The notes under the pieces are model-generated. The model searched no databases, was not told the DNA's origin, and worked only from the letters and a program-made list of their open reading frames with translations. From a virus (lineage: Duplodnaviria > Caudoviricetes), in the IMG/VR virus record IMGVR_UViG_3300010151_000015, positions 1 to 56,285 of that record: DNA of 56,285 bases; one strand, written 5' to 3'. This document shows positions 18,503-28,231 of this stretch, one piece after another. How positions within the stretch are numbered: position 1 is the stretch's first letter; every line of letters begins with the position of its first letter. The position numbers were made by a program, and so were the translations under genes.

Positions 18503-18933
18503 CGCTTGACCTCTAGTAGTGGGCCTGTTGCGATGTCCAGGGTCAGGTGTTGAATGTCTTTGGTCAGTGCGTAGAAATCAGTGATGGATGTCCGCGAATG
18601 CCCTACTCCGGCCAGATCCGCCATTAAGCTGGACCCCAGGCCGATACAGCCCTGCAGGTCCTTGGCCCAGTTCGCTATGTGGATCAGGATCGCACTCCGG
18701 CCTGGGACCTCGGCCACTTCCCAGAGTTGGCCCTGGTATGCGCTGTCAGCCCCGAATCTAGGGCTGTCTACGCGAATCATGGAGTATGACGCACCTGGGA
18801 TACAGGAGACGTTGGCCATATTGTCGAGCCAGGGCCGCTCGATTGAGTACCAGATCCGGTCCTGAAATTGCCACTTTCCCAGAACACGGTCCGGAAAATG
18901 GGCAAATCTGGTCATTTTTACAGTGTCAGACAA
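18499..18933 (-). CDS. DUF5675-family protein (putative L,D-peptidase-type endolysin)
   Basis: SIERPW.DN..NVSCIP.G.Y and VPGRSAILIHIANWAKDLQGCIGLG, with a His...Cys catalytic pattern. Confidence 0.75.
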   Translation of the reverse strand: MSDTVKMTRFAHFPDRVLGKWQFQDRIWYSIERPWLDNMANVSCIPGASYSMIRVDSPRFGADSAYQGQLWEVAEVPGRSAILIHIANWAKDLQGCIGLGSSLMADLAGVGHSRTSITDFYALTKDIQHLTLDIATGPLLEVKR

Positions 18934-19020
18934 AATATATTTTCTCCTCTACAACCCGCATTTTAGCTGGTCCCAGTCACCTTTTCACTACTTATCTGGG
19001 CCTAATTCGGAAATAGGGGG

Positions 19021-19049
19021 TTGCAATACGAAGGATCTTTCGCTAATGT
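19021..19049 (+). promoter_or_regulatory. Sigma70-like promoter of the + strand early operon, with a palindromic operator in its spacer
   Basis: TTGCAA-17 bp-TAATGT; the spacer contains the near-palindrome CGAAGGATCTTTCG. Confidence 0.6.
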
Positions 19050-19089
19050 TCGGCATTCCGAACACACGCAAGCCAAGGAGAACGACAGA

Positions 19090-20052
19090 ATGACTAAGCT
19101 ACAAGAGATTACAGACCGTAAGATTGAAGCCCAGATTTGGGACCTCGCCAACCAGGGAGCCATTTTCTATGTCTCTCATTCTGGGGGCAAAGATTCCCAG
19201 GCAACCTACCTCTACCTATCCAGTGGCCTCCATATCCCTACAAGCCAGATCGTGGTTGTCCACGCTGACCTGGGTGAAGTCGAGTGGACTGGGGTGAAGG
19301 ACCATATCCGAAACACCATCCTCCATCCCCTCAATGTAGTAAGTGCGATTTACAAGGATGGATCTGAAAAGACCCTGCTCAATCTTGTTGAGAAGCGATT
19401 CGACACAAGGCCCGAAGCTCCCTCCTGGCCCAGCAGCGCAGCCCGATACTGCACTTCAGATCTGAAGCGCGGCCCGATTGAGAAGTTCATCCGCAATGAC
19501 CTCAAGGCCAGGGGCAAGACCCTCGCCGTCAATGTATGTGGAATCAGGGCTGAAGAGTCATCTGCCAGGGCCAAGAAGGTCCCGTTTCAGCAGAATGACC
19601 GGCTCTCCATCGCCAGCCGCACGGTTTATGACTGGTATCCCATCTTCGACTGGTCAACTGATGAGGTGTTCCAGTGCATCGCTGATTACGATGAGAAGCC
19701 TTTCTGGGCCTACGCTGAAGGGAATGACCGCCTGAGCTGCGTGTTCTGCGTGTTCGGATCTAAGGGTGATATCGCCAGGGGCCGCAAGTATCGTCCCGAG
19801 CTGTTCGCCAAGTACGTTGCCCTGGAGGAGAAGACTGGGTACTCAGTATTCGCCAAGGAATCGATCATCGCCAGGAGCAGCCAGTTCACTGTTACGGTAA
19901 CCCACAGGGAAGGCCTGGACACTGAGCAGGTCCAGTTCTTCACCGAGGCCGAGGTCAGGGCATTCACCAGGGAAGAGGTGAAATGGCAGTACACTGATCG
20001 AGTCATCTGCGAAGCCCTGGATATCGATGAGGCTGGTGACTGGACCGCATAG
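19090..20052 (+). CDS. PAPS reductase-family (PP-loop, Fe-S) protein 1
   Basis: VSHSGGKDS PP-loop, RYCTSDLKRGPI, GIRAEESSAR, YPIFDW and RLSCVFC. ATG at 19090 has an AAGGAG RBS; the track's TTG start at 19021 coincides with the -35 box. Confidence 0.9.
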   Translation: MTKLQEITDRKIEAQIWDLANQGAIFYVSHSGGKDSQATYLYLSSGLHIPTSQIVVVHADLGEVEWTGVKDHIRNTILHPLNVVSAIYKDGSEKTLLNLVEKRFDTRPEAPSWPSSAARYCTSDLKRGPIEKFIRNDLKARGKTLAVNVCGIRAEESSARAKKVPFQQNDRLSIASRTVYDWYPIFDWSTDEVFQCIADYDEKPFWAYAEGNDRLSCVFCVFGSKGDIARGRKYRPELFAKYVALEEKTGYSVFAKESIIARSSQFTVTVTHREGLDTEQVQFFTEAEVRAFTREEVKWQYTDRVICEALDIDEAGDWTA

Positions 20053-20106
20053 TCTGACTGATGAGGCCTGAATGGCCGAAACCCCCGAGACCTGGGGGTC
20101 TTAGAC
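20052..20106 (+). ncRNA. Hammerhead ribozyme 1 (type I), predicted cleavage after C20100 (GUC)
   Basis: Stem I GTCTGA/TTAGAC; core CTGATGA (20058-64); stem II GGCC-TGAAT-GGCC; GAAA (20078-81); stem III CCCCC-GAGACCT-GGGGG; then TC. Confidence 0.93.
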
Positions 20107-20136
20107 AATTAACATAAACTGATTAGGAGTACGAAA

Positions 20137-21147
20137 ATGAGGCAACTGATTACATCCGATAGACTGCAAGACCTCAAGGCCCTGGTAGCCAAAGGCCACA
20201 AGATCAACCTGTGCAACGGCCTGGGAGTCGATTCCACCGCTGTATCTGTCCTGCTGCACAGTGAGGGCATCCGGCCTGATGTCATCACCTTTGCCGATAC
20301 AGGAGGTGAGAAGCCTGAGACACTGGCACACCGGCATATTCTGAACGAATGGTACGCCTCGATTGGCTGGCCCCAGATCACTGTCTGCGCCAAGGTCACC
20401 TTGCCTTCCACCAGCTATGAAGACCTGACTGGGAACTGCCACGATAACGAGACTCTGCCTTCCCTGGCCTTCGGCAAGAAATCCTGCAGCATCAAGTGGA
20501 AGCAAATCCCCCAGGACTATTTTCTGAAGGGCTGCAAGGCTCCGCACAACCCGATCCCAGTCCATCCTCTCTGGGCCGAGTATCAGGAGACCGGCCTCAA
20601 GATCATCAAGATCATTGGATACGATGCTGGCCGTGCTGACATCAGGCGATCCAAGAAACTCAAGGGTGAAGACAATGACTTCATTTTCAACTATCCGCTG
20701 CAGAGTGTGGGCTGGGCCAGGGCTGAGTGCGTTGCAGCAATCACTGAGGCGGGACTGCCAGTGCCTGTGAAATCCGCATGTTATTACTGCCCAGCGTCGC
20801 AAAAATGGGAGCTGTTCTGGTTAGCAGGCACTCACCCCCATCTGTTCCTGAATGCCCTGCAGCTTGAGCGCGGTGCATTGACTGGTCACCACAGTCGATT
20901 CGCAGACGATGTTGACTGGATCACCTGGGAAGATCTGGTCAGCGATTACGATGAGTACCCCAGCCTGAATACCTGCGTTGGCCTGGGCAGATCCTTTGCC
21001 TGGAACCAGTGGGCCAGGATCGAAGGGATCGTGGATCGTGACGGCAAGTTCATTGGCAACCGCACCGAGCTTCTCAGGAAGGCTACCGAGCCGCGAGAGG
21101 CCAAGGAAGCCACAGGCGGCAACGCACAAGATGCGAGGACCTGCTAG
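20137..21147 (+). CDS. PAPS reductase-like / adenine-nucleotide alpha-hydrolase protein 2
   Basis: NGLGVDST PP-loop variant, FADTGGEKPET, SCSIKWK, IIGYDA, YPL and PVKSACYYCP. Confidence 0.85.
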   Translation: MRQLITSDRLQDLKALVAKGHKINLCNGLGVDSTAVSVLLHSEGIRPDVITFADTGGEKPETLAHRHILNEWYASIGWPQITVCAKVTLPSTSYEDLTGNCHDNETLPSLAFGKKSCSIKWKQIPQDYFLKGCKAPHNPIPVHPLWAEYQETGLKIIKIIGYDAGRADIRRSKKLKGEDNDFIFNYPLQSVGWARAECVAAITEAGLPVPVKSACYYCPASQKWELFWLAGTHPHLFLNALQLERGALTGHHSRFADDVDWITWEDLVSDYDEYPSLNTCVGLGRSFAWNQWARIEGIVDRDGKFIGNRTELLRKATEPREAKEATGGNAQDARTC

Positions 21148-21167
21148 GTCCCAGGGGCTTCGGCCCC

Positions 21168-21219
21168 GCTGTCGAGAGGTGATGCACCTCTCCTGATGAG
21201 GCCCCCAGGCCGAAACAGC
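21168..21219 (+). ncRNA. Hammerhead ribozyme 2 (type III), predicted cleavage after C21173 (GUC)
   Basis: Stem III GCTG/CAGC; TC; stem I GAGAGGTG-ATG-CACCTCTC; core CTGATGA (21193-99); stem II GGCC-CCCA-GGCC; GAAA (21212-15). Confidence 0.93.
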
Positions 21220-21296
21220 TAAAGAAGTATCTTTCGCAGTATAATTATGCGATGATGCGTCAATACGAACCGAAACTGACTAGGAGAACGACAATT

Positions 21297-22352
21297 ATGA
21301 TGAACCTTCCACAAATTAACCTGGGCCAAGCCACGGAGTTTCTGACTTCATGGTGGGCTGCAGGCAATACGAAGCCGGTAACGCTTTGGGGACCTCCAGG
21401 CGTTGGTAAGTCTGCCGGTATCGCTGCAGTACCAGCCCGACTCGAAGAGATCCAGGGTCAGCCCTGGGGCTTCATCGATGCCCGATTGAGCCAGATGGAC
21501 GCAGTGGATCTGCGCGGTGTGCCATCAATCGAGAACGGCATCACCACTTGGAATACGCCATCCTGGCTCCCCAACGTCGAGCGAGACGGCCCCAGGGGGA
21601 TTCTGTTTCTGGATGAGCTGTTCCTGGCATCCCCTTCCACCCTGGCCGGAGCGTATCAACTGCTCCATGATCGATGCCTGGGTGACTATGTTCTGCCCGA
21701 GGGCTGGGTTGTCGTAGCGGCCAGCAACAGGCCCGAAGACAAGGCTGGCCTGACCAGTAACTTCAATACGGCGGTCAGCAATCGATTCGCCACTCACTTC
21801 AACATCATCTGTGATGTTGTCGTCTGGACTGCCTGGGCCGCGCCTCACGGGGTCCTGGCCGAGGTCATCGCTTTCCTGGGTTTCTGTCCCGAACTGATCC
21901 ATGAATACCCCAACGGCCTGGGCAAGGAAAAAGGGGTCATCGGATTCGGTAGCCCCCGTTCCTATGAGGCTGCAAGCGATATCCTGAAGCTGGGCCTGCC
22001 GATAGATCTGGAACATGCCGCCCTCCAGGGTTGCCTGGGATTCGGTATATCTGCCCAGCTTATCGGGTTCATCAAGATCATCCGCAACCTCCCAGATGTT
22101 GCCGGTATCCTGTCAGATCCTGATAACGCGCCAATACCTTCGGCTCCTGATACCCAGTACGCCCTGGCCGCTTTGTTTGCCAGGAAAGCTACCAGGGAGA
22201 ACCTGGGGGCCGTCATCCGGTTTCTGGATCGCATCAGCTCAGAGTTTACCATGCTCACAGTGCTTACAGCGACTGCCCGTGACCCTGAGTTGAAGGAGAC
22301 CCAGGCCTACATCGATCACAAGATCGCCAACAAGGAGGGCTATGTGGGCTAA
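21297..22352 (+). CDS. MoxR-like AAA+ ATPase
   Basis: Walker A GPPGVGKS, DLRGVP, Walker B ILFLDE, VVAASN, NRF and SPRSYE. Start placed at ATG 21297 after a TAGGAG RBS. Confidence 0.9.
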   Translation: MMNLPQINLGQATEFLTSWWAAGNTKPVTLWGPPGVGKSAGIAAVPARLEEIQGQPWGFIDARLSQMDAVDLRGVPSIENGITTWNTPSWLPNVERDGPRGILFLDELFLASPSTLAGAYQLLHDRCLGDYVLPEGWVVVAASNRPEDKAGLTSNFNTAVSNRFATHFNIICDVVVWTAWAAPHGVLAEVIAFLGFCPELIHEYPNGLGKEKGVIGFGSPRSYEAASDILKLGLPIDLEHAALQGCLGFGISAQLIGFIKIIRNLPDVAGILSDPDNAPIPSAPDTQYALAALFARKATRENLGAVIRFLDRISSEFTMLTVLTATARDPELKETQAYIDHKIANKEGYVG

Positions 22353-22353
22353 C

Positions 22354-22411
22354 GTCCTACTGACGATCTGGGATGGTGACCCAGTGAAAGCCCCGAGAGG
22401 GGCTATAGGAT
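22354..22411 (+). ncRNA. Hammerhead ribozyme 3 (type I, U-U at 10.1/11.1), predicted cleavage after A22405 (CUA)
   Basis: Stem I GTCCTA/TAGGAT; core CTGACGA (22360-66); T-CTGGG-ATGGTGA-CCCAG-T; GAAA (22386-89); stem III GCCCC-GAGA-GGGGC; then TA. Confidence 0.88.
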
Positions 22412-22442
22412 AACCACTTAAACTGATACGGAGAACGACATT

Positions 22443-23315
22443 ATGAGGATTCAAGAACAGGCGTTGCTGGTTAGCGTCACCCTCCACTACTGGAGAAATC
22501 GCAAGCTCGACAAGCGATTGACTGCCAAGGTCAACAAGCAGACCAAGGCCAAGAAAGGGACCATTGGAGTCACTAAGGATCTGGTGGACTGTGCGGAGGT
22601 CAAGCAACTCAAGACCCTCCAGGGCCATATCCGAAACAACATCGTGGATCATTTGACCGTCCCCTGGGGCGATCATGGCCAACGGTTGATCACGGTAGAG
22701 CTGCTGGATCGATTTGAAGATGAGCTGGCCCAGGCCGTGCTTGACTGGGATACGCTGCTTCATGACCTGAAGACCAGCTACCCGATTGCAGTGGCAAACT
22801 CTGCTGACCTGCTCGGGACCGCTCACAATCCAGCGGACTACCCGACTACTGACCAGATCATTGCCAAGTACGGCATTGAGGTTAAATACTGCCATCTGCC
22901 AGATAGCGGTGACATCCGAGTGGATCTGCCCCAGTCCAAGATCGATAAGATTGTCAACAGTGTTGATGATCAGGTGACTGCCGGAATCAAGGAAAGCACC
23001 ACTCGAATCCACAAGCGCCTGACAGACAAGCTCGGGGCGCTGATCGAGAAGCTCAGTGGGTACACGGTAGATGCGAAGACCGGCAAGGCTACTGGGAATT
23101 TTGCTCCTACCCTGGTAACCAACCTGACGGATCTGGTAGACATTCTCCCAGCTCTGAATGTGACCGGCGATCCTGCACTGGCCCAGGCCACTGATGAGAT
23201 CGTGGCCCAGTTGGGTGACCTCAAGCCTGAAGCACTCAAGACCAATGAGTCCTACAGGAAGGATACTATCGCAAAGGCCAAGACCATCGCGTCAAGCCTG
23301 GAGGGCCTGTACTAA
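22443..23315 (+). CDS. Helical phage protein often found with AAA/vWA pairs (DUF3150-like)
   Basis: 290 aa; TVPWGDHGQRL, DYPT..QI..KY and LPALNVTGDP.L; coupled to the vWA gene via TAATG. Confidence 0.6.
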   Translation: MRIQEQALLVSVTLHYWRNRKLDKRLTAKVNKQTKAKKGTIGVTKDLVDCAEVKQLKTLQGHIRNNIVDHLTVPWGDHGQRLITVELLDRFEDELAQAVLDWDTLLHDLKTSYPIAVANSADLLGTAHNPADYPTTDQIIAKYGIEVKYCHLPDSGDIRVDLPQSKIDKIVNSVDDQVTAGIKESTTRIHKRLTDKLGALIEKLSGYTVDAKTGKATGNFAPTLVTNLTDLVDILPALNVTGDPALAQATDEIVAQLGDLKPEALKTNESYRKDTIAKAKTIASSLEGLY

Positions 23316-24784
23316 TGAGCGCCGAAGCACTTGCTAAGGTAACCCAGGCCAGGAAGCGGCTCATCCGAGTCGCTCCGTTCTTTGCCCACAAGGCACTGAG
23401 TCTCCGCCTGGAAGAGTCTACACTGACTGAGACAATGGCCACAGACGGGACCTGCGTTTTTTACAACGTGGATTTTGTCCTGGCCATCTCAATCGTGGAG
23501 CTGTTCACAGTTTTCGCCCATGAGGTATGCCATGTAATCCTGTGTCACCATACCCGCCGAGGAACCAGAGACCCCAAAGAATGGAACGTCTCCTGTGATT
23601 TTGCGGCCAACCTGATCATCGATGCCTACCAGCTTTTTCAGCTCCCCCAGGGTGCTTTGCTGGATCAGGCATACAAGGGCCTGAGTGCCGAGAAGATCCA
23701 CACGATCATCTTTGGTAACAGGCCCCAGGAAGATCCTTCAGATGACTCTCAGGAGCCACAGGAGAGCGATTCGGATGAAGAGGGTGATGATACCTCCGAA
23801 GGCGAGAACGCTCCCCAGGATGACCAGGGCGAGGATGAGGGTGATTCTGAAGAGGGTTCTGAGTCCCAGGCCGGCGATGAGGGTGACCAGGGTGATGACC
23901 AGGGTGATTCCGAGTCTGGATCTGGTGATGATGGCCAGGGTGATGATGGTGATGATGCCGGTGATTCAGCCGGATCTGGTGACCAGGGTGACGATGATTC
24001 TGGCAACGGATTAGGCGAGGCCGAAGGTGAAGGCGAGGGCGAAGCTCCTGCCGGTTCCCCAGGCGAAGGCTCTGCTCCTGGCGAGATCTGGGATGCCGTC
24101 AATGACGATGGTGAGCCGCTGACCCCTTCCGAGATCGAGACTGAAGAGCGCGAAATCGCTGCCCAGGTCTTCCAGGCCCATCAGGCCGAGAAGGCAATGG
24201 GCAAAGGTGCTGGCAACGTCCTCGGTGTTCTCGAAGACAAGCTGGAGCAGCCACTGCCCTGGAATGAGATCCTGCAGGAATATTTTTCTGACATGATCTC
24301 TTACGATTCCACATTCGCTAGGCCTAACCGTAGGTTCCTGCACTCTGGCCTGATCCTACCTGGGCCTGATCAGCAGCCCAACGGGGAGCTGGTACTGAGT
24401 ATCGATACTAGCTGCAGCCTGGGCCAGGATGAGTTGGAGACGATAGCCGGTCATATTAACGAGTTAATAGACACGATCCAGCCAAGCCAGACCACTGTGA
24501 TTTACTGTGATGCGGTTGTACAGCATGTCGATGTATTCGAGCGCGGTGAAGAGGTGGAGCTGGTACTGCACGGCGGCGGCGGCACTCGATTCGATCCAGT
24601 GTTTGAGTACTGCGAAGCCGAGGACATCCAGCCGGATGCGCTGATCTACTTCACTGACGGGTACGGATATGTGACAGTCGAAGAGCCAGAGTATCCTGTG
24701 ATCTGGGTGACCACTGCAGTAGCTCCCAGGTTCCAACGAGAAGCTGACCGATTCGGGGAGGTGATCGAAGTCGAGGCCTACTGA
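23315..24784 (+). CDS. Metallopeptidase-like (DUF2201-type) + acidic linker + vWA domain protein
   Basis: TMATDG, HEVCH zincin motif, WNVSCDFAAN; about 110-aa D/E/G/S low-complexity linker; vWA MIDAS-like IDTSCS, GGGTRF and LIYFTDGY. Confidence 0.9.
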   Translation: MSAEALAKVTQARKRLIRVAPFFAHKALSLRLEESTLTETMATDGTCVFYNVDFVLAISIVELFTVFAHEVCHVILCHHTRRGTRDPKEWNVSCDFAANLIIDAYQLFQLPQGALLDQAYKGLSAEKIHTIIFGNRPQEDPSDDSQEPQESDSDEEGDDTSEGENAPQDDQGEDEGDSEEGSESQAGDEGDQGDDQGDSESGSGDDGQGDDGDDAGDSAGSGDQGDDDSGNGLGEAEGEGEGEAPAGSPGEGSAPGEIWDAVNDDGEPLTPSEIETEEREIAAQVFQAHQAEKAMGKGAGNVLGVLEDKLEQPLPWNEILQEYFSDMISYDSTFARPNRRFLHSGLILPGPDQQPNGELVLSIDTSCSLGQDELETIAGHINELIDTIQPSQTTVIYCDAVVQHVDVFERGEEVELVLHGGGGTRFDPVFEYCEAEDIQPDALIYFTDGYGYVTVEEPEYPVIWVTTAVAPRFQREADRFGEVIEVEAY

Positions 24785-24833
24785 TGATCTGGGGCGGTTC
24801 CCCAGTGAAAACGCCCTTCGGGGCGTTATAGGC
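24776..24833 (+). ncRNA. Hammerhead ribozyme 4 (type I, U-U at 10.1/11.1), predicted cleavage after A24828 (UUA)
   Basis: Stem I GCCTA/TAGGC; core CTGATGA (24781-87, containing the vWA gene TGA stop); T-CTGGGG-CGGTT-CCCCAG-T; GAAA (24807-10); stem III ACGCCC-TTCG-GGGCGT; then TA. Confidence 0.9.
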
Positions 24834-24859
24834 AAACCAACTTAACTAGGAGTTTTATT

Positions 24860-25075
24860 ATGGCAAACCATTACATCACGCTCACCGGAGCGGCCCCAGG
24901 AGATGCTGGGGATGAGGCCAGGACATCGTCCCTGGTAATCACTGGCGGGGAACCTGGGATCAAGGTCCTGGGCGAACTGCCTCACGGCTACATCTTCACT
25001 CCGGCAACGGACGAGGACCGCTACGCGCTTTGCGAGTGGCTGCTGAACCTCGAGTACCCCGAGGAGAAGTCATGA
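24860..25075 (+). CDS. Hypothetical protein
   Basis: 71 aa, TAGGAG RBS directly after ribozyme 4. Confidence 0.7.
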   Translation: MANHYITLTGAAPGDAGDEARTSSLVITGGEPGIKVLGELPHGYIFTPATDEDRYALCEWLLNLEYPEEKS

Positions 25076-25326
25076 ACGTACAGACAGGCATCAGCGGATC
25101 TCAGCCAGGGGTTGGGTCCTTTATCGCCCACACAACGCCGGACGGCCAGGACTGGTGTATCCAGGCGGTCATCAATGATGAGGTCATCGAGAGATGGTGC
25201 AGCACTTGGAGTGCGGCCAACTGCAACGGCCTGACCAAGGTCTACGCCATCCTGAGAGAATTGGGGTTCACCCTGGAAGGATTCCAGACCGCCGAGGTTC
25301 TACCCTTGCGCGTCAATATTGATTAG
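25072..25326 (+). CDS. Hypothetical protein
   Basis: ATG at 25072 overlaps the upstream stop (ATGA) and has a GAGGAG RBS. Confidence 0.65.
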   Translation: MNVQTGISGSQPGVGSFIAHTTPDGQDWCIQAVINDEVIERWCSTWSAANCNGLTKVYAILRELGFTLEGFQTAEVLPLRVNID

Positions 25327-25335
25327 GGAAGACAG

Positions 25336-25351
25336 GGTTTCATGTGAAACC
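25336..25351. promoter_or_regulatory. parS-like palindrome
   Basis: GGTTTCATGTGAAACC matches 13/16 to the parS consensus TGTTTCACGTGAAACA; intergenic. Confidence 0.4.
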
Positions 25352-25388
25352 GAAATATGTGTCATAATAGGGCCAGAGGTACAGGAAT

Positions 25389-25634
25389 ATGGACATGAAA
25401 GTTAGTACAAGTAGAGAATTGGTGAGCAGCCTGGGCGATGATCTGCCAGTCACGATCCTGTTCGACTACCAGCCATACGAGAAACCTACGCTTGAATACC
25501 CAGGCTATCACGAGTCTGTCGTTGTCGAGGCCGTCATGATCAATGAGGTTGATGTGATCGAGCTTCTCAGCAGATGCGCCGTGAAGGGCCTGGAAGAAAA
25601 ATGCCTCACCAGTATCCACGAGGAGGGGCCATAG
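25389..25634 (+). CDS. Hypothetical acidic protein
   Basis: 81 aa (VTILFDYQPYEKPTLEYPGY), last ORF of the + strand unit. Confidence 0.65.
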   Translation: MDMKVSTSRELVSSLGDDLPVTILFDYQPYEKPTLEYPGYHESVVVEAVMINEVDVIELLSRCAVKGLEEKCLTSIHEEGP

Positions 25635-25774
25635 TCGGAAACCCTGCTGGCAGGGGTCCTTTCGGGGAGTAGGCCAGACAGTCCCAGCGGACGGTGGGCT
25701 GCATATGAAAAACATCCGTAGTTGACAAGGTGAGGGTAAATGGTTGTACCCCGCCCCACTGAGGTTAACGAGAA

Positions 25775-25805
25775 GCCTGCCCATCGTGAGATGCGCGGGT
25801 TTTTT
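25775..25805 (+). terminator. Rho-independent terminator of the + strand operon
   Basis: GCCTGC-C-CATC-GTGA-GATG-C-GCGGGT hairpin followed by a T run. Confidence 0.65.
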
Positions 25806-27350: not shown

Positions 27351-28231
27351 TGTCCTACCACCTCATAGTCTTTGTAAACGCGCCCCTTGCTCGGATCCCC
27401 GCGATTGTGCGCGGCCCTAAATACTTTGGTCTTGCCCTGATTTGGCCCAGACTTGATCTCATGATCGTAGTGAACGTAGTGACCCCTGACTCCATGGTAT
27501 CGGTTCTTCCTGCCAGTAGCTTGGCTCTCACCGGTATACCGGACGCGAGGCTTGTCAGCATGGATACGGACGGTCCTAAAGATATTGGTCACGCCATCAG
27601 CTTCCTGACCCTGATAATCCAGATCATAGAACCGCTCGATCTCTTCAATCGCTCGATCCTTGTGCAGCAGATATTGCATGTATGAAAACCAAGTCAGCAC
27701 ATAATTTTCCATATCCCTAGAAAGCTTATATCCAGACTCAAGCGCCACATCAATTCTCCTTGGGTCTTCATTCCTAGTCAGGATTGCTTTTGGCGCAGCG
27801 AGGTTACACGCATCTTCTCCATCCGCATCCAACCCGCTAAGAAATATGACAACAGATATCCGTCCAGTGCCAATCTGCTCGGCAATAATTGTCACCTCGG
27901 ATGGACCGACAATACTCACCCCTTCGCGATGAGCTGATGTATTCTTATCTTCTGAAATATATACCACCGCCTTATTGGGCAATTTGAATATATCAAATCC
28001 TTCGCCAAGAGATTTCTTGAGAGAATCAAAGTCCCCGTCATAATCAGCGCCTTCAAAATAATATCTTGCCGCCCTTGGTAGAGTGTGCGCCAGGGTTCTC
28101 ATGCCTCGCATGACAGCCTTTTCTCTCTTGGCCGCAGAAGGAGACCGCGACCTTTTCCACGTATTCAAGACCCCTTTCTTGATGGCTTTAAGGACCGCGT
28201 TGTAAGCCTTGATATGCCTATGTAAGCTCAT
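27347..28231 (-). CDS. Hypothetical phage protein
   Basis: 294 aa; C-terminal RYHGVRGHY...HNRGDPSKG.V.KDY motif common in phage hypotheticals. Confidence 0.7.
   Translation of the reverse strand: MSLHRHIKAYNAVLKAIKKGVLNTWKRSRSPSAAKREKAVMRGMRTLAHTLPRAARYYFEGADYDGDFDSLKKSLGEGFDIFKLPNKAVVYISEDKNTSAHREGVSIVGPSEVTIIAEQIGTGRISVVIFLSGLDADGEDACNLAAPKAILTRNEDPRRIDVALESGYKLSRDMENYVLTWFSYMQYLLHKDRAIEEIERFYDLDYQGQEADGVTNIFRTVRIHADKPRVRYTGESQATGRKNRYHGVRGHYVHYDHEIKSGPNQGKTKVFRAAHNRGDPSKGRVYKDYEVVGQ

Follow-up and report, generated by a model that had tools for sequence, protein, structure and literature searches.

What are four hammerhead RNAs doing at the gene junctions of a single phage operon? The question is raised by IMGVR_UViG_3300010151_000015, a marine phage record (Duplodnaviria; Caudoviricetes) of 56,285 bases, estimated to be 93% complete, which was analysed over its whole length (hereafter the window); the DNA runs containing window sequence are marine metagenomes. 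An initial annotation, made from the sequence alone, had recognised four complete hammerhead ribozymes between the genes of a rightward operon and had read them as punctuation that cuts the transcript into separately stabilised and translated units. Rereading the sequence and scanning both strands with a strict descriptor returned the same four elements, with the same coordinates and predicted cut sites and all on the coding strand. They lie at gene junctions within a span of 4.8 kilobases (kb), and the second is preceded by a further hairpin (lengths below are in base pairs, bp, or nucleotides, nt):

20052–20106, + strand: HH1, type I hammerhead with CUGAUGA, GAAA, GUC and a G10.1-C11.1 pair; predicted cut 20100/20101
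21154–21167, + strand: hairpin with a 5-bp GC stem and a UUCG loop, immediately next to HH2 stem III, from sequence and fold
21168–21219, + strand: HH2, type III hammerhead with CUGAUGA, GUC and a G-C pair at 10.1-11.1; predicted cut 21173/21174
22354–22411, + strand: HH3, type I hammerhead with CUGACGA, UA and a U10.1-U11.1 mismatch; predicted cut 22405/22406
24776–24833, + strand: HH4, type I hammerhead with CUGAUGA, UA and a U10.1-U11.1 mismatch; predicted cut 24828/24829

The type I elements HH1, HH3 and HH4 are open at stem I and the type III element HH2 at stem III, with stems I/II/III of 6/4/7, 8/4/5, 6/5/6 and 5/6/7 bp in HH1 to HH4, respectively. All four contain the core C3 U4 G5 A6 N7 G8 A9, together with G12 A13 A14, the A15.1-U16.1 pair and a position H17 that is not G (C, C, A and A). 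The strict descriptor, which requires a perfect core, three contiguous stems, A15.1-U16.1 and H17, has exactly four matches on the two strands of the 56,285 bases, all of them on the + strand and identical to HH1–HH4. Two hundred dinucleotide shuffles average 0.02 matches, a single match being found in four of them. The stems carry this signal, because a loose CUGANGA...GAAA pattern shows no more than about twofold enrichment in the window (13 occurrences versus 5.6). When each element is folded in isolation, the minimum free energy (MFE) structure is the hammerhead three-way junction in 4/4 cases, and the whole 149-nt spacer containing HH2 adopts a hairpin and a hammerhead (z score −3.57).

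Which genes do these elements separate? Genes lie on the minus strand until position 18933, followed by a divergent intergenic region and then by a plus-strand block of genes and open reading frames (ORFs), in which the 290-amino-acid protein is referred to as the 290-aa protein:

19090–20052, + strand: PAPS-reductase-like gene 1 (Pfam PAPS_reduct, E 5e-7; PHROG 424, E 1.9e-37)
20137–21147, + strand: PAPS-reductase-like gene 2, divergent (PHROG 424, E 6.5e-13; no Pfam match)
21297–22352, + strand: AAA+ ATPase, MoxR/AAA_5-like (Pfam AAA_5, E 1.4e-5; PHROG 1297, E 1.1e-67)
22443–23315, + strand: 290-aa protein, conserved partner of the DUF2201 gene (no family in Pfam or PHROGs)
23315–24784, + strand: DUF2201_N metallopeptidase-like and VWA-like (DUF2201) protein (Pfam, E 2.9e-41 and 2.1e-19)
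24860–25075 and 25072–25326, + strand: two small ORFs, ATGA-coupled and not separated by a hammerhead
25389–25634, + strand: further small ORF
near 25784–25805: terminator-like hairpin with a T run

Gene 1 was assigned to the ATG at 19090, which is preceded by AGGAG. In three of four cases, the upstream stop codon touches a ribozyme or falls within it: for example, the first base of HH1 is the last base of the gene 1 TAG stop, and the TGA stop of the DUF2201 gene (24782–24784) sits within the CUGAUGA core of HH4. Measured from the upstream stop, the elements start at −1 (HH1), +20 (HH2), +1 (HH3) and −9 (HH4), as expected from the annotated position at or within about 20 nt of a stop; the companion statement, that each ends just before the next ribosome-binding site (RBS), fails for HH2, whose end is 63 nt from the RBS and 77 nt from the ATG at 21297. 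The junction at 23315, said to be translationally coupled, does read TAATG, the start of the DUF2201 gene overlapping the stop of the 290-aa gene. A DUF3150-like label in the initial annotation has no support in Pfam, where the 290-aa protein is without a match even at E ≤ 10. Three genes have a near-identical RBS leader in common, consisting of (A/C)GGAGAACGACA, 2–3 bases and ATG (19076–19092, 21283–21299 and 22430–22445), of which one opens the operon and two come after hammerheads.

Is this arrangement shared by related phages? An alignment of 25 DUF2201 homologues was used in a search that fetched 80 viral loci (824,639 bases), superseding an earlier scan of viral contigs with a single DUF2201 protein, which had yielded one distant locus; with L001 and L004, the 80 loci form a set of 82. 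Descriptor matches longer than 110 nt were discarded throughout the relatives and the placement counts. On the gene strand of the 80 loci there are 69 matches to the strict descriptor and on the opposite strand only one, which adjoins an inverted copy of the 290-aa gene; from the shuffle rate, about 0.3 matches would be expected by chance. At least one match is present in 33 of the 82 loci, with up to five per locus. Of the 69 gene-strand matches, 26 have the U10.1-U11.1 variant seen in HH3 and HH4, and the exact stem II variant pattern of these two elements was found in viral contigs at one locus, L004.

Hammerheads at coding-strand, non-overlapping junctions recur in these phages. The 290-aa and DUF2201 genes travel together in most of the 80 loci (tblastn), and upstream of the 290-aa gene, where the window has a type I element, relatives have 13 type III and three type I hammerheads. 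The junction between the two genes holds a hammerhead in 4 of the 63 loci where it could be assessed, with gaps of 96–146 nt, and in 46 of the 59 loci without one the gap is at most 28 nt. This pattern fits the rule that hammerheads mark uncoupled junctions, although it is partly trivial because a 55-nt ribozyme needs room.

Does selection act on the structure of these RNAs? According to the initial annotation, the stems of the four elements differ in sequence. This is correct in part: most of stems I and II is common to HH3 and HH4, and stem II to HH1 and HH2. The evidence for covariation comes from the relatives. Six type I hammerheads from relatives, and none from the window, served to build a covariance model, R1. 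Searched with filters off, the top three window matches are HH4 (29.7 bits, E 3e-5), HH1 (26.8 bits, E 1.7e-4) and HH3 (21.7 bits, E 3.3e-3), the next match scoring 10.8 bits (E 2). Over 83 sources, R1 recovers 49 copies at E ≤ 0.1. In the alignment of these copies, which was fitted to the model and hence favours pairing, 97.9% of cells pair and both-sided changes are seen in 16/20 pairs. Cells with both-sided changes number 211, versus 56 ± 6.3 after shuffling (0/500 reach the observed count) and at most 36 with slid partners, a control that shares the bias of the alignment. The A15.1-U16.1 pair is invariant in 43/43 distinct aligned rows. Junction-located hammerheads with covarying stems, which had been proposed as something to look for in related contigs, are present there (69 matches; 16/20 pairs). 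One relative (L025:1526–3161) has five type I hammerheads in 1.7 kb as detected by R1, each after a very small gene, an arrangement denser than that of the window.

A tertiary contact is possible in some type I elements. Loop II of HH3 (UGGU, 22374–22377) can pair with ACCA (22413–22416), and loop II of HH4 (GGUU, 24796–24799) with AACC (24835–24838); in HH3, HH4 and relatives with a UGGU loop, loop II can form 4–5 bp with the tail that follows immediately 3′ of stem I. This UGGU-loop subgroup contains one apparent double change, UGGAU/AUCCA in L039. Over 31 type I copies, the loop II-tail helix is no longer than in controls (3.65 versus 3.67 shuffled and 3.45 with permuted tails), and the pseudoknot is a candidate for the UGGU-loop subgroup only.

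Placement relative to the upstream gene depends on hammerhead type. Distances were counted in the 80 DUF2201 loci and in the window after near-duplicates had been taken out, considering ORFs of 50 codons or more. Left out of the placement counts were the near-duplicates L010, L014, L019 and L046, the window pieces L002 and L003, and the unoriented L004; a further locus, L085, was excluded from the stop-distance statistics only, and hammerheads less than 200 nt from the start of a locus were not counted. In 36/44 cases, the start of a type I hammerhead falls between −12 and +5 nt relative to the upstream stop (random positions, 4.2%), and in 5/5 that of a type II hammerhead does so; a distance of −9 is frequent and, as HH4 illustrates, makes the UGA within CUGANGA serve as the stop codon. 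None of the 31 type III hammerheads starts in that interval, and 28 of them are located 20–102 nt past the stop (random, 20%). A strong spacer hairpin ends at or next to the type III ribozyme in 21/22 cases (HH2 of the window plus 21 in relatives), with a mean z of −5.1.

The same tendency is seen in a second sample of 120 viral stretches selected by the generic core pattern only, which contains 166 distinct hammerheads and may overlap with the 80 loci (hammerheads less than 150 nt from the locus start not counted). Type I is at the stop in 71/113 cases (null 5.2%) and type III in 2/45, with 33/45 of the latter 15–110 nt past the stop. Mean folding energy over the 40 nt upstream is −14.2 kcal/mol for type III (z −2.73) and −7.3 kcal/mol for type I (z −0.76). 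All four window elements obey the placement rule, HH2 with its hairpin. The rule is not mentioned in the main text of Perreault et al. 2011 (PMC3088659; term search), and a full-text literature search, whose coverage did not extend to several key papers and supplements, did not find it. In relatives, the long AT-rich hairpins before type III hammerheads often share the loop motif ACUGGU or ACUAGU (L017:3953–4003, L034:4786–4846, L033:4729–4789, L044:2680–2743 and others), suggesting a specific contact or binding site and not a generic stem.

What, then, would the elements do? We propose, with a probability of about 70%, that HH1–HH4 are cis-acting hammerheads (three type I, one type III) that cut the polycistronic RNA of one rightward operon into pieces. 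Every sequence test run here classes the elements as hammerheads, with folds, significance, conservation, covariation and a placement that recurs in relatives behind them; cleavage in the cell, and with it the punctuating function that the initial annotation had assigned to them, is what we infer. Each element would fold after transcription and cut 3′ of GUC or UA, and the polycistronic RNA would be converted to mono- or dicistronic pieces, presumably giving each piece its own stability and translation.

Hammerhead cleavage produces 2′,3′-cyclic phosphate and 5′-OH ends. A type I or type II cut is predicted to keep stem III on the upstream RNA, with type I keeping stem II as well. A type III cut would leave the upstream RNA only a few unpaired bases, a lack that the added UUCG hairpin would make up for. 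Every upstream piece would then have a stable hairpin and a cyclic phosphate at its 3′ end, and downstream pieces would start with a 5′-OH and carry a short AGGAG-type Shine-Dalgarno leader, 26–77 nt before the start; the downstream piece of HH2 would instead carry the ribozyme body as its 5′ structure. In the account of bacterial mRNA decay in PMC3997798, 3′ exonucleases clear the fragments upstream of mRNA cuts, a 5′ monophosphate stimulates RNase E, and structures near the 5′ end can stabilise an mRNA. It is from these decay rules and the topology of the cuts that we infer hairpin-capped upstream and 5′-OH downstream products. As a tentative extension, to which we would give rather less than even odds, the placement rule may constitute a topology-matched "end-protection grammar", in which types I and II at the stop keep stem III upstream and type III adds a hairpin, providing host-independent mRNA maturation with built-in 3′ protection.

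Several observations weigh against transcript cutting by these elements. At gathering score, Rfam matches 0/4 of the window hammerheads, and the Rfam check suggested in the initial annotation came back empty at this threshold. The best score is that of HH2 to Hammerhead_3 (40.9 bits versus a cut-off of 48.5, E 1.5e-6, over the full model positions 1–54); HH1 has only a weak partial match to RAGATH-1-hammerhead (22.8 bits versus 56.3), and HH3 and HH4 are without a hammerhead-family match at E ≤ 10. Rfam also returned no gathering-level match in 13 related loci in which the descriptor and R1 find dozens of hammerheads (L012, L017, L018, L020, L022, L025, L026, L031, L033, L034, L043, L044 and L047), the best sub-threshold scores being 47.5 versus 48.5 for type III and 30.6 versus 37 for type II. 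As clear hammerheads are missed there too, Rfam blanks carry little weight; the non-detection reflects the cut-offs and not the elements. Little weight likewise attaches to the result for 14 related loci lacking strict hammerheads, in which no ribozyme (twister, pistol, hatchet or other) was found at gathering score. In the window, the Rfam scan found no match to twister, pistol or hatchet.

Two further objections concern the RNAs themselves. HH3 and HH4 are mismatched at the most conserved pair of stem II; in the main text of Perreault et al. 2011 (PMC3088659), U10.1-U11.1 is described as a natural variant and the most active mispair, and pseudoknot contacts are described as well. With 30-nt flanks included, the MFE structure keeps stems II and III and has other pairings in place of stem I in HH1, HH3 and HH4. 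Folding may depend on co-transcriptional order or tertiary contacts. The timing of folding relative to translation may also matter, given this loss of stem I and given that a ribosome terminating at a stop codon at or in the ribozyme would sit over stem I and the core.

Other objections concern distribution. Strict hammerheads are absent from 49 of the 82 related loci, and only 16/63 loci have one upstream of the 290-aa gene, which indicates that the gene cassette works without hammerheads. The annotated rule of one hammerhead per uncoupled junction is correct within 20052–24838, the span for which it was given, and breaks down beyond it at the same-strand, 62-nt junction 25326->25389, which has none. 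The hammerhead-free junctions 25327–25388 and 25635–25739 are no better structured than shuffles (z −0.10 and −0.76). Finally, the close relative L085, a metagenome contig 96–98% identical to the window, carries an additional A next to A9 in the HH2 core. The annotation had named loss of core nucleotides in close relatives as a sign against its reading; in L085, HH4 is identical, the five differences in HH3 are confined to the free position N7 and loop III, and stem I of HH2 shows a G-C pair turned to G-U in addition to the extra A. The insertion could weaken the L085 copy of HH2, perhaps making that hammerhead dispensable.

Could the ribozymes cleave and yet serve to lower or differentiate expression, with one product exposed to decay, as in glmS, and unequal gene amounts as the outcome? 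In Bacillus subtilis, RNase J1 degrades the 5′-OH RNA that results when glmS cleaves itself, and in RNase J hosts a 5′-OH end can be a decay entry site (PMC3997798). The latter also counts against a stabilising role, which would become host-dependent. Nevertheless, every cut would leave a hairpin at the upstream 3′ end and an intact Shine-Dalgarno leader ahead of the downstream start, an arrangement that seems built for both products to be usable, and we regard the lowering of expression as unlikely.

A quite improbable alternative is that units of hammerhead and leader are mainly joints at the DNA level for the exchange of gene cassettes, RNA cleavage being secondary. Both L085 and a contig from run X14 have 2864 other bases (L085:2844–5707) in place of window positions 19095–21149 (gene 1, HH1 and gene 2), with break points at the gene 1 start codon and 3 nt past the gene 2 stop, immediately ahead of the hairpin and HH2. 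These bases code for three tightly packed ORFs, with a 2-nt gap at one boundary and a 38-nt overlap at the other, and the final ORF is PAPS-reductase-like; no hammerhead was found between them, so that in L085 again hammerheads accompany non-overlapping junctions. The finding of different types at the same junction across phages (13 type III and three type I upstream of the 290-aa gene) would also suit exchangeable joints. However, only one swap is seen, compensatory changes in 16/20 pairs indicate selection on RNA pairing, and joints in DNA need no strand bias such as the 69 to 1 found in the relatives. A second difference in L085 is the lack of a counterpart to window 27367–28225; the flanking blastn pieces abut, indicating an insertion or deletion.

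We consider it very improbable that the reverse reaction, acting on 5′-OH and cyclic-phosphate ends, joins the segment lying between two hammerheads into a circular or spliced RNA. The chemistry permits this and the possibility was raised by Perreault et al. 2011 (PMC3088659), but in their main text neither spliced nor circular products were detectable, and in the window there is no pairing between the end of a segment and its own start. That the elements are chance motifs or decayed, inactive relics, as the lack of gathering-level Rfam matches and the U-U mismatch in two of them might suggest, is hardly credible given four matches versus 0.02 expected, the recovery of the three type I elements by a model built without the window, the covariation, and the confinement of L085 changes to unconstrained positions.

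Our preferred reading therefore remains the cutting of one operon transcript by its own hammerheads. Elsewhere in the window, consensus scans for promoters and terminators gave chance-level results, no tRNA or tRNA-like genes were found, and positions 19000–25100 have no blastn match among GenBank phages. After the last small ORF, the + strand at 25641–25723 has a sub-threshold match to the Rfam Proteo-phage-1 RNA over the full model length (34.6 bits versus a gathering score of 42, E 0.015), with a stability no better than shuffles (z −0.76). The DUF2201 protein contains, at window positions 23730–24060, an acidic Gly/Asp/Glu-rich low-complexity insert made of GGTGATGA-like repeats, which draws very deep unrelated contigs in run X12 (bin 23896–24099), a mapping artefact.

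What the locus adds is a clean example of a ribozyme-punctuated phage operon in an abundant marine phage lineage, an arrangement that in itself will not surprise a specialist. Because Rfam gathering cut-offs miss a whole population of hammerheads, routine annotation under-reports such ribozymes in marine phages. The placement rule, which extends over about 200 phage hammerheads, provides the processing hypothesis with a testable prediction, namely that the upstream 3′ hairpin matters. Should the proposed end-protection grammar be true, every cut would yield a hairpin-capped, cyclic-phosphate 3′ end and a 5′-OH mRNA, explaining both the purpose of the ribozymes and the persistence of all three permutations.

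How does this compare with known systems? In phage T7, RNase III makes intergenic cuts in the early mRNA, generating gene-sized mRNAs that end in hairpins. The window is predicted to resemble T7 in that one long phage transcript would give rise to hairpin-ended, gene-sized mRNAs; unlike T7, where a host protein enzyme acts on double-stranded hairpins, the RNA here would cut itself, leaving 5′-OH and cyclic-phosphate ends. RiboJ is an engineered, hammerhead-type ribozyme insulator that is placed before a gene and standardises its 5′ leader. A similar standard leader follows three of the four predicted window cuts, the difference being that the window is natural and RiboJ engineered. The window elements have the same core, stems and cleavage triplet as the Rfam families RF00008 Hammerhead_3 and RF02276 Hammerhead_II (both clan CL00010) and RF03152 RAGATH-1-hammerhead and, unlike family members at gathering score, all four fall below it. 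The glmS ribozyme, as described in PMC3997798, is likewise a self-cleaving RNA within a bacterial mRNA with a 5′-OH downstream product; it is ligand-activated, located in the 5′ untranslated region and linked to RNase J1 decay, whereas the window elements are intergenic and without a ligand domain.

The closest parallels are with other phage-associated ribozymes. A 2019 review (PMC6765202), drawing on Roth 2014 and Weinberg 2015, describes bacterial twister and hammerhead ribozymes that share gene neighbourhoods, and the window resembles these neighbourhoods in that self-cleaving ribozymes adjoin phage-related genes; in its text the processing idea is repeated, what accounts for these associations with genes is given as undetermined, and the purpose of bacterial and phage hammerheads is left open. 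That idea was put forward by Perreault et al. 2011 (PMC3088659), whose main text reports multiple hammerheads flanking genes or short gene blocks in prophages, proposes the processing of long phage transcripts, and shows cleavage in vitro for three tandem arrangements and in Escherichia coli for one. A ribozyme-punctuated operon is a plausible reading of the window sequence, but it is the hypothesis published in 2011, with cleavage here predicted. Gene identities near the clusters of Perreault et al. are not constant, and the window differs from them in its gene cargo and in belonging to an uncultured marine phage. It is like those clusters in having several complete, co-oriented hammerheads of mixed types within a few kb, flanking phage genes or gene blocks (PMC3088659).

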